A model generated the notes under the pieces. That model did no database searches and was not told where the DNA came from. It saw nothing but the letters and a program-made list of their open reading frames with translations. A program made the translations under genes and the position numbers. DNA of 25,637 bases from a virus. Its lineage: Duplodnaviria > Heunggongvirae > Uroviricota > Caudoviricetes. The DNA lies in IMG/VR virus record IMGVR_UViG_2671181122_000005, positions 1-25,637 of that record, one strand, 5' to 3'. Every line of letters begins with the position of its first letter. Within the stretch, counting starts at the first letter, position 1. Positions 19,515 through 21,099 of the stretch are shown here, piece by piece.

Positions 19515-19784
19515 TTACTTCATCCCGCCAATATTTTCCCACGTCCCGTCAGCACGCAGGATTTGCAGCGGTCTTACCACGCACTGTATCTGCTTTTTAT
19601 CCGCATCCAGTATCACCACCTGCGTGATTAGCCTGTCCTGCTCCGGGATAATGCCATTCTCATCTGACTCCAGAATGTCTGCCGGTCCCAGTCGCAGCTG
19701 TGCTGTAAGTAACTCCCCGTGTTCACGGTCATCATGCTTTCCGCAACCACACAGACGCTGCATAAGTTTTTTTAGTATATTCAT
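19515..19784 (-). CDS. Small tail-fibre-associated protein (89 aa) paralogous to the Stf C-terminal domain
   Basis: ATG at 19784 with an AGGAGA SD, 2 nt after the stf stop. LRLGPADILESDENGIIPEQDRLITQVVILDADKKQIQCVVRPLQILRADGTWENI aligns with the Stf C-terminus [60 protein letters not shown]. Confidence 0.5.
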   Translation of the reverse strand: MNILKKLMQRLCGCGKHDDREHGELLTAQLRLGPADILESDENGIIPEQDRLITQVVILDADKKQIQCVVRPLQILRADGTWENIGGMK

Positions 19785-19785
19785 G

Positions 19786-21099
19786 TCATTCTCCTGTTCT
19801 GCCTGTATCACTGCCCACTTCATCCAGCCCCTTGACATCCTGCCACGGTCCGTCACCAAACCTGACCTGCAAATGCTGAAAAAAACCCTGAACCCGTGTG
19901 GCATCTTTGGGGTCAAGAAAGGTCAGTCCGGTGATGAGCGCACCATCTGTATCCGGGAACCAGCCATTGCTGTTTGTCTCAATAATGTTTCCCGGCCCCA
20001 GACGGAACCGTATTTGCGTCTCCCCCGGGTCGCCCTTCGGCCCCTGAGGTCCGGTTGCCCCCACCGGGCCAGCCGCACCTGTTTCTCCTTTCGGTCCCTG
20101 TGGGCCTGCCGGGCCTGCCGCACCGGTATCTCCCTTTGGACCCTGTGGACCTGCATTTCCCGTCAGACCGGTCTCTCCCCGCTCTCCCCTGTCGCCTTTC
20201 GGCCCCTGCGGGCCTGCCGGACCAGCATCACCTGCCGGCCCCCGTTCACCGGTTGCCCCTGCCGGGCCGGTGTCGCCACGCTCTCCTTTATCTCCCTTCG
20301 GCCCCTGAGGACCCGCGGGCCCCTGTTCCCCCTTTGGCCCGGGAGGCCCCACCACGGTCGGGATTCGGTTTACGGCTTCTTCCGCCGCTATCCTGCTTTG
20401 TTCCGCTGACTGTGCGCTTTCTGCTGACTCCCGGGCTTTTTCTGTTGCGGTCGTTGCATCCCTGGCTGCATTACCGGCTGCACTTTCTGCCGTCTTTTTT
20501 GACAACTCAGCATCTGCTGCACTTTGTAATGACTCACTGGCTTTTTGAGCGGCCTCAGAGGCCGAGGACGAGGACGCCTCCTCTGACTGCTTTGCAGCGG
20601 CTGCACTTTCTGCCGCCTGCCGGGCTGACTCCGATGCATCCCCTGCTGAAGTGTCAGCATTTGCAGCGTTCTCTTCTGCCTGACTGGCTGATATGCCGGC
20701 ATTCCTCGCTGATGTCTCCGCCTCTCCGGCATTCTTCTTCGCCTCCTCTGCGTTACGCGCCGCTTCTTCCACCATCAGTTCAAAACGACGCAGTGCCTCC
20801 GGCCGGACGTCATCCTCCGACATGGCACCGAGAAAATCATTCAGCGTACCGGGTTGAGAATCTTCATACACTGTGATTGTTCCGGCATGTGATGGCGGGA
20901 ATCCTTCCACCAACAGAATGACGCTGTACTGACCGTACTCAACGTCCATGCTGTAACGACCGGCTTCATCCGGATTTTCAGAGGCCACCGTGTTCACCAC
21001 CACCGTGCTGCTGGTCCGTCTGGCTTTCAGTTGAATGGTGCAGTTCTCTACCGGTTTTCCTGTACCGTCTTTCAGTACACCTGAAATCTTTACTGCCAT
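19786..21099 (-). CDS. stf: Side tail fibre protein (Stf-like) with a collagen-like Gly-X-Y repeat region
   Basis: N-terminus [28 protein letters not shown]... matches lambda Stf as recalled. ATG at 21099. Confidence 0.85.
20023..20349 (-). repeat. Collagen-like GPxGPxG triplet repeat coding region within stf (aa 253-361)
   Basis: [31 protein letters not shown]... The nucleotide-level periodicity creates long spurious antisense ORFs. Confidence 0.8.

Follow-up and report, generated by a model that had tools for sequence, protein, structure and literature searches.

A conserved paralogue of the tail-fibre C-terminal domain encoded directly downstream of stf in a lambda-like prophage

The right end of a lambda-like prophage lies within a 25,637-nucleotide (nt) stretch of viral DNA (IMG/VR record IMGVR_UViG_2671181122_000005, positions 1 to 25,637; hereafter the window), where its genes run on the minus strand in the order J, terminator, lom, terminator, stf, a small gene, hairpin terminator and effector cargo. 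Our subject is the small gene (19515..19784, minus strand; ATG at 19784, TAA at 19515-19517), which encodes a free-standing 89-residue PfC-domain protein. The gene upstream, stf (19786..21099, minus strand; 437 aa from the ATG at 21099), encodes a collagen-like side tail fibre with the EPclA architecture described by Ghosh et al. (2012; PMC3368898), that is, PfN, coiled coil, collagen repeats and PfC, and it matches PF08400 (E=3e-69), PF01391 collagen (E=3e-18) and PF06820 (E=5e-35). The listing of open reading frames (ORFs) extends stf to a GTG at 21105, giving a 439-aa ORF to which the fibre residue numbers 365-428 used here refer; in a 97.6%-identical locus the Prokaryotic Genome Annotation Pipeline (PGAP) calls a 437-aa 'prophage tail fiber N-terminal domain-containing protein'. 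The collagen Gly-X-Y repeat region of Stf (20017..20358, minus strand; delimited by PF01391, the translation and the 33-nt repeat family D1) is followed by the C-terminal PfC domain (19822..20013, minus strand; residues 365-428, PF06820 positions 1-64 of 64). A single spacer base, C (19785), separates the stf stop codon TGA (19786-19788) from the ATG of the small gene, whose Shine–Dalgarno sequence GGAG (19791..19794, minus strand) lies within the last stf codons, 6 nt upstream of the ATG.

In the small protein, alignments delimit an N-terminal extension of 27 residues (MNILKKLMQRLCGCGKHDDREHGELLTA; 19704..19784, minus strand), and the Pfam match defines a PfC core at residues 28-89 (19518..19703, minus strand). 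Fourteen nt past the stop codon begins an intrinsic-terminator-like hairpin with a U-run (19469..19500, minus strand; RNA fold of -21.2 kcal/mol, with an 11-bp stem and then UUUUUG), which is also present in the prophage Sp5 and whose equivalent in phage 434 is annotated as a terminator. Further upstream, J (21830..25345) and lom (21164..21763), both on the minus strand, are likewise followed by terminator-like hairpins (21793-21812 and 21116-21137, minus strand), placed as are the annotated terminators of phage 434. Rfam and tRNA scans around the locus gave no matches, and the window holds no additional PfC copies or relics. A 302-aa plus-strand ORF (19501..20409), antisense to the small gene and the collagen repeats, was taken as an artefact.

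The first-pass annotation had read the product of the small gene as paralogous to the C-terminal domain of Stf, and at the protein level the relationship is clear. BLASTP between the small protein and the fibre gives 23/62 identities (37%) and 61% positives (E=5e-12), and the Smith–Waterman score of 106 compares with 27 ± 4 (maximum 49) in 2,000 shuffled controls (z ~20). Residues 29-88 of the small protein pair with fibre residues 366-427, the common motifs being RLGP, NG, LIT, LD, LQ and DG-W; the aligned stretch therefore covers 62 residues, not the roughly 55 first proposed, and it lies on the minus strand, which had been left unstated. Both proteins match PF06820 (Phage_fiber_C; gathering score 25 bits), the small protein with residues 28-89 over model positions 1-64 of 64 (122.9 bits, E=7e-36) and the upstream fibre with residues 365-428 (120.1 bits, E=5e-35). 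A DNA-level comparison of the two PfC-coding segments in codon register gives 55.6% identity, the longest identical run being 7 nt; by codon position, identity is 70% at the second and 48% at the first and third. Given this low identity and the shortness of the shared runs, the duplication is old, and it is visible mainly at the protein level. Collagen repeats are absent from the small protein, whose own, separate ORF opens with 27 unrelated residues; this extension has no counterpart in Stf, and a C-x-C motif within it is mostly conserved in the alignments. Of the two proteins, it is the upstream Stf that has its PfC domain after a collagen region. A sequence search of Protein Data Bank chains with the small protein returned nothing relevant (best E=0.28, optineurin), and NCBIfam has no model for it.

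Pfam, PHROGs, PGAP and one paper already document the paralogy. PGAP names the small gene product 'phage tail fiber C-terminal domain-containing protein'; PHROG 576 ('tail fiber protein', an 89-position profile) matches residues 1-89 over 89/89 positions (E=7e-60); and the annotators of phage 434 labelled the homologue CPT_434_24 'tail fiber assembly chaperone'. In Sp5 (VT2-Sakai), Mondal et al. (2016; PMC5155283) described ORF68 as an 89-aa polypeptide consisting of the phage fibre C-terminus domain, reported it to be non-essential and proposed a 'reservoir' role for it. ORF68 (= orf59, VT2-Sap61), the phi24B coding sequence 39909-40298 ('gp59', CM22), CPT_434_24 and PHROG 576 are the same gene as the one studied here. 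The ORF68 product is 92% identical to the small protein of the window (82/89), its locus has the same 1-nt junction, Shine–Dalgarno sequence and terminator, and the 620-nt block comprising the collagen end, PfC, small gene and terminator is 95% identical in DNA to that of the window, so that the result of Mondal et al. transfers directly to the window gene. The settings differ: the window gene stands behind the EPclA-type side tail fibre of a lambda-like (J-lom-stf) prophage, whereas ORF68 stands behind the EPclB lateral fibre of a short-tailed Shiga toxin (Stx) phage, a podovirus. At position 52 the window allele has L where most other alleles have V. What we add to this record is a modest shift from 'relic or reservoir' toward a functional protein under selection, together with a map of the conserved end of the tail module.

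Linkage of the small gene to its fibre was assessed in viral contigs picked by the fibre N-terminal domain, independently of the small gene. In 61 of the 62 evaluable loci the stf PfC segment, its stop codon, 1 nt and the ATG of the small gene follow one another in this order, the exception being a frameshifted copy. One locus (L156), considered as a ~60%-identical variant, proved to hold the same gene carrying two frameshifts and no divergent allele. Among 5,426 complete Escherichia coli genomes, the small gene occurs in 698 (median 11 places per genome) and the Stf PfC segment in 697 (median 10 places per genome). The PfC fibre module is limited to about 13% of complete E. coli genomes, with a median of 10-11 copies there, and examples of carriers are O157:H7, O111 and O145 strains, along with further human, cattle and meat isolates. 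The small gene is also present in 296 phage records, including 434, Lambda_2B8, VT2-Sakai (Sp5), 933W-type phages and phi24B, so the same module is found in infective phages of two morphotypes. In phiSTEC1575-Stx2k a related fibre has a non-PfC C terminus, followed by an unrelated ORF in place of the small gene.

The PfC family is very narrow, with 82 matches in a hidden Markov model search of 1.84 billion representative proteins, nearly all of them E. coli fragments. Outside the E. coli group a single relative of PfC was convincing, a 565-aa protein in the representative library (P0232) that has four tandem units like the C-terminal half of PfC, followed by collagen repeats; its units follow the pattern VVVLDAD...LQVRRADGTW.EIP and are at most 50% identical over 34 residues. 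Three long repeat proteins (P0231, P0247 and P0250) were rejected as relatives, looking like low-complexity matches.

Intactness in 55 loci and the ratio of nonsynonymous to synonymous polymorphism per site (pN/pS) were measured in loci chosen by the fibre N-terminal domain; a second sample of 84 loci was chosen by identity to the small protein and is hence biased for pN/pS. The small ORF is intact in 55/55 loci of the independent sample and 83/84 of the second. Its PfC core has a pooled pairwise pN/pS of 0.08 at a pS of 0.12, its N-terminal 27 residues are more variable (0.38), and the PfC of Stf stands at 0.37-0.40. The small gene is thus under purifying selection, and that it is more constrained than the fibre tip is a tendency only.

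Constraint extends to the junction, where the sequence ...ACAGGAGAATGACATG is identical in 80/84 related loci and nucleotide diversity over the last ~30 nt of stf is 0.014, as against 0.08-0.12 in the flanks. Over the last ~90 nt of stf (window 19786-19880, minus strand; loci L002-L157), diversity is 0.014-0.04 compared with 0.08-0.12 in the PfC-coding sequence on either side, and pS in the last 11 stf codons is 0.011; this low-diversity end contains the Shine–Dalgarno sequence of the small gene, a recombination joint or a recoding signal being other candidate causes. About 30 nt past the small-gene stop codon, diversity climbs to ~0.7, the level of unrelated sequence, which places the end of the conserved tail module at the small gene and its terminator, with variable cargo thereafter.

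For a close homologue there is information on translation. The supplement of a cryo-EM preprint on phi24B (bioRxiv 10.64898/2026.04.10.717836) lists the peptides ADGTWENIGGMK and VITQVVILDADKK as identified in purified virions, and in that supplement both map only to this ORF or to the authors' hypothetical fibre-ORF fusions. Each has a count of 3 there, and two peptides of the fibre PfC have counts of 47 and 38. The protein entry in the supplement is labelled 'Spike or just gp59?'; the main text of the preprint mentions neither gp59 nor a frameshift or fusion. Moreover, the phi24B expression clone CM22, which covers this coding sequence, reacted with antiserum against lysogen cultures (Riley et al. 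2012; PMC3342100).

These data bear on the suggestion of Mondal et al. (2016) that the gene is a silent reservoir or relic, a stored or leftover alternative tip with no protein function that occasionally recombines into stf, a proposal made for the non-essential Sp5 homologue (PMC5155283). Rare natural recombinants do exist. In one (P0063; contig L158, positions 1-360; two samples), the stf collagen repeats are joined in frame to the PfC of the small gene at GP|ADILESDE, through a ~540-nt deletion across a ~14-nt overlap; another (P0173) is a hybrid of the 5′ half of the small gene and the 3′ half of the Stf PfC. Such fusion variants are a handful among thousands of copies, and recombination between the two paralogues is rare and illegitimate. 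In several other prophages, decayed remnants of the small gene's 3′ end are found past inserted cargo genes, roughly 1 kb downstream of its intact copy (L021, L031, L040, L042, L046, L047, L052-L054 and L063, in the last at 4954-5100 and 7233-7301, thus also at ~3 kb). The position of these fragments beyond the cargo suggests that cargo entered through recombination, with the small gene's 3′ end or its terminator as the site.

Against a silent store stand the strong purifying selection on an almost invariably intact ORF, the conservation of its Shine–Dalgarno sequence and start codon, and the peptides of the homologue in phi24B virions. The two copies also lack any common DNA run above 7 nt, which leaves them unable to recombine homologously. 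Between 19300 and 21200 there are no inverted repeats and no template-like repeats of the diversity-generating retroelement type, and no invertase or reverse transcriptase is present among the neighbouring ORFs scanned with Pfam (lom, J, the nleH-like and nleF-like genes and the integrase of the adjacent prophage, a part of the ORFs of at least 100 aa that were listed window-wide). As the main role of the gene, a silent reservoir is largely refuted, and we consider it improbable overall. The same evidence contradicts the earlier idea that the gene is a relic of an alternative receptor-binding cassette. The host-range modularity that the first-pass annotation read into the junction finds limited support: the block from collagen end to terminator is 95% identical between this siphovirus-type prophage and the podovirus Sp5, and rare fusions and hybrids occur, but these are exceptions and no regular switching is seen.

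A second alternative concerns the reading frame. Relative to stf, the small ORF is read in the +1 frame, starting 1 nt past the stf stop codon, and a minority of ribosomes might shift +1 at the end of stf (GAA-UGA-C; junction GGAGAAUGACAUG) to give a fibre chain with two tandem PfC domains. UGA-C is a weak stop context, GGAG lies just upstream of it, and the last ~90 nt of stf are unusually conserved in DNA; a chain with PfC-like units in tandem is known from the distant relative P0232, which has four of them. The mass spectrometry database in the phi24B supplement holds the authors' hypothetical entries 'Fusion_6159_FS1/FS2', alongside the querying label quoted above. The details of the site, however, are unfavourable. 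At frameshift sites of the prfB type, the P-site codon can re-pair in the +1 frame beside a poor stop codon, and an SD-like (Shine–Dalgarno-like) stimulator lies about 3 nt upstream. At the stf end, GGA-GAA-UGA-C, the stop context is indeed poor, but the shift codon is overlapped by GGAG, unlike in prfB, and in the +1 frame the P-site GAA re-pairs poorly on AAU. Mondal et al. found no frameshift signal (PMC5155283), the part of the phi24B peptide table that was searched contains no junction peptide, and an in-frame stf-small gene fusion allele occurs at 0/84 junctions. The small ORF also has its own well-placed and conserved start codon and Shine–Dalgarno sequence. We regard recoding as a very remote prospect.

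The protein might instead act away from the virion, inside a cell that is infected or lysogenic, where it could for instance disturb the fibres of co-resident or superinfecting phages or mask a receptor, its link to stf being one of descent only. Around ten copies per carrier genome, in different prophages, make cross-talk between fibre sets conceivable; the phi24B homologue is scarce in virions; the Sp5 homologue is dispensable for the phage; and the CM22 clone was found with antiserum raised against lysogen cultures (PMC3342100). Those cultures, as their authors stress, include spontaneously induced cells (PMC3342100). The gene itself lies inside the late operon, upstream of its terminator and downstream of the two terminators after J and lom, and has no strong promoter of its own, promoter-like matches occurring only downstream of it and in numbers no greater than expected from shuffled sequence. 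A surface receptor would be out of reach before lysis, since inspection of residues 1-27 reveals no signal peptide or lipobox; MNILKKLMQRLCGC was considered as a lipoprotein or signal peptide and ruled out on inspection, a hydrophobic core being absent. A function of this kind appears unlikely, if not negligibly so.

Structure prediction, which the first-pass annotation had recommended, gave models of low to moderate confidence and no informative fold match for either the small protein or the Stf PfC. The AlphaFold 2 monomer of the small protein has a confidence of 62.5, with an all-beta core at residues 27-84 (predicted local distance difference test, or pLDDT, ~70) and a low-confidence N-terminal extension of 27 residues; that of the Stf PfC has a confidence of 55.6. 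The phi24B authors similarly report that AlphaFold yields no confident model of this knob (bioRxiv 10.64898/2026.04.10.717836). Biochemically, the PfC of the EPclA fibre on its own (7.2 kDa) forms 24-kDa trimers in size-exclusion chromatography with multi-angle laser light scattering, and re-nucleates the collagen helix (PMC3368898).

We propose, at roughly even chances, that the small gene encodes a late-expressed and probably trimeric accessory protein that engages the fibre knob transiently or substoichiometrically and pays off only under natural conditions. As the last gene of the tail operon, it would be co-transcribed with stf and translated from its own Shine–Dalgarno sequence, so that its product would appear late, together with the fibre. 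Judged by analogy to the PfC of the fibre, this product most likely forms a small beta-rich trimer, whose contact with the distal fibre knob would probably be transient or involve fewer than one copy for each fibre chain. There it may aid fibre assembly or stability, or modify the tip, and it would be useful under natural conditions while dispensable for infecting laboratory K-12.

Homology, linkage to PfC-ended fibres, purifying selection and operon position are shown, as are, for close homologues, translation and non-essentiality; trimer formation, physical association with the fibre and a role there are what we infer. Several observations weigh against this proposal. The peptide counts of the small protein in the phi24B supplement are ~12-15 times lower than those of the comparable fibre peptides, so that carry-over from the lysate is possible (bioRxiv 10.64898/2026.04.10.717836). 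In-frame deletion mutants of Sp5 were scored for plaque formation and for the ability to lysogenise K-12: the fibre gene proved essential, and the ORF68 deletion was absent from the mutants that were defective, reduced or enhanced (PMC5155283). The fibre is reported to be trimeric and dumbbell-shaped when made from a single recombinant construct (Ghosh et al., PMC3368898). Each of the four possible pairings of fibre-tip and small-gene alleles is seen, with no sign of co-adaptation. Finally, segregating changes number 18 synonymous and 11 nonsynonymous in the small-gene core, compared with 15 and 22 in the Stf PfC, and by these counts the difference in constraint is not significant (Fisher p=0.14).

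A bolder version casts the small protein as a new fibre accessory, either a separate trimer stacked on the distal end or occasionally +1-fused at GAA-UGA-C, which would provide a second, highly conserved tip for natural hosts. We think this doubtful, although, if true, a second tip that matters only on O-antigen-bearing, gut hosts would explain why ~10 copies stay intact per genome of Shiga-toxin-producing (STEC) and enteropathogenic (EPEC) E. coli despite dispensability on K-12. The collagen-like fibres in question are carried, at ~10 copies per genome, by Shiga-toxin and effector-carrying prophages of enterohaemorrhagic E. coli (EHEC) and EPEC. The lateral fibre of phi24B, recent work argues, is not what binds BamA. 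Hence a tip partner that is both conserved and expressed offers a reasonable lead on how these phages reach O-antigen-covered hosts.

Type III effector cargo lies directly past the tail-module terminator (17874-19333, minus strand). It consists of an nleH-like gene (18629..19333, minus strand) and an NleF-like gene (17874..18443, minus strand). The nleH-like ORF, at 234 aa, appears truncated or frameshifted and has a weak OspG-kinase match; its equivalent in strain FORC_042 is called 'nleH, frameshifted' by PGAP. The NleF-like protein has 189 aa (Pfam E=7e-8). The left two thirds of the window (1-17046) belong to a second lambdoid prophage, directly adjoining the first, of which they form the early arm, and the tRNA scan found no tRNA gene between the two elements. 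This arm encodes an integrase (16021-17046, plus strand), a DUF4224 protein (15818-16021, plus strand), an 824-aa protein with an Rv2179c-like exonuclease domain (13285-15759, plus strand), a DnaT-domain protein (9172-10278, minus strand) and a DUF968 protein (1763-2812, minus strand). It also holds a Septu anti-phage defence pair (4096-6091, minus strand), made up of PtuA (4718-6091, minus strand; PADLOC E=1e-165) and the HNH protein PtuB (4096-4740, minus strand; E=1e-83), whose ORFs overlap by 23 nt.

Among known systems, the K1F endosialidase and T5 pb1 have C-terminal intramolecular chaperone domains that lie within the fibre chain and are cleaved off. These may resemble the small protein, as C-terminal modules involved in trimerising a fibre, whereas the small protein is a separate gene product, with no detected common sequence or fold. 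Closer by descent is the PfC of the EPclA and EPclB fibres (Ghosh et al. 2012). The small protein fits the whole domain model; its predicted structure, of low to moderate confidence, is beta-rich, and the fibre PfC has little or no helix (PMC3368898). Unlike that domain, the small protein is free-standing and unfused to a collagen helix, so that there is nothing in cis for it to trimerise; its identity to the PfC of the neighbouring fibre is only 37%, and it bears the 27-residue N-terminal extension with its C-x-C motif.

In gene position, the nearest parallels are lambda Tfa, Mu and P2 Tfa and T4 gp38, which, like the small gene, directly follow a fibre gene and close the tail operon. As with a Tfa-type gene, the small gene lies downstream of its cognate fibre and is co-inherited with the tip (61/62 loci; 698 versus 697 genomes; a non-PfC fibre without the small gene). 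The small protein has no sequence relation to the Tfa families: PF06820 is its only Pfam match, and searches of Pfam, NCBIfam and PHROGs gave no match besides PfC and tail-fibre families. Tfa-type proteins are generally required for fibre function. The 92%-identical Sp5 ORF68 was not needed for functional fibres (PMC5155283). That deletion was harmless on K-12, and recombinant fibre is reported to be trimeric from a single construct; these data argue that the small protein is not an obligatory chaperone, and of the earlier suggestion of a chaperone derived from the tip domain only a weak form remains. Unlike Tfa and gp38, the small protein is a paralogue of the fibre tip itself.

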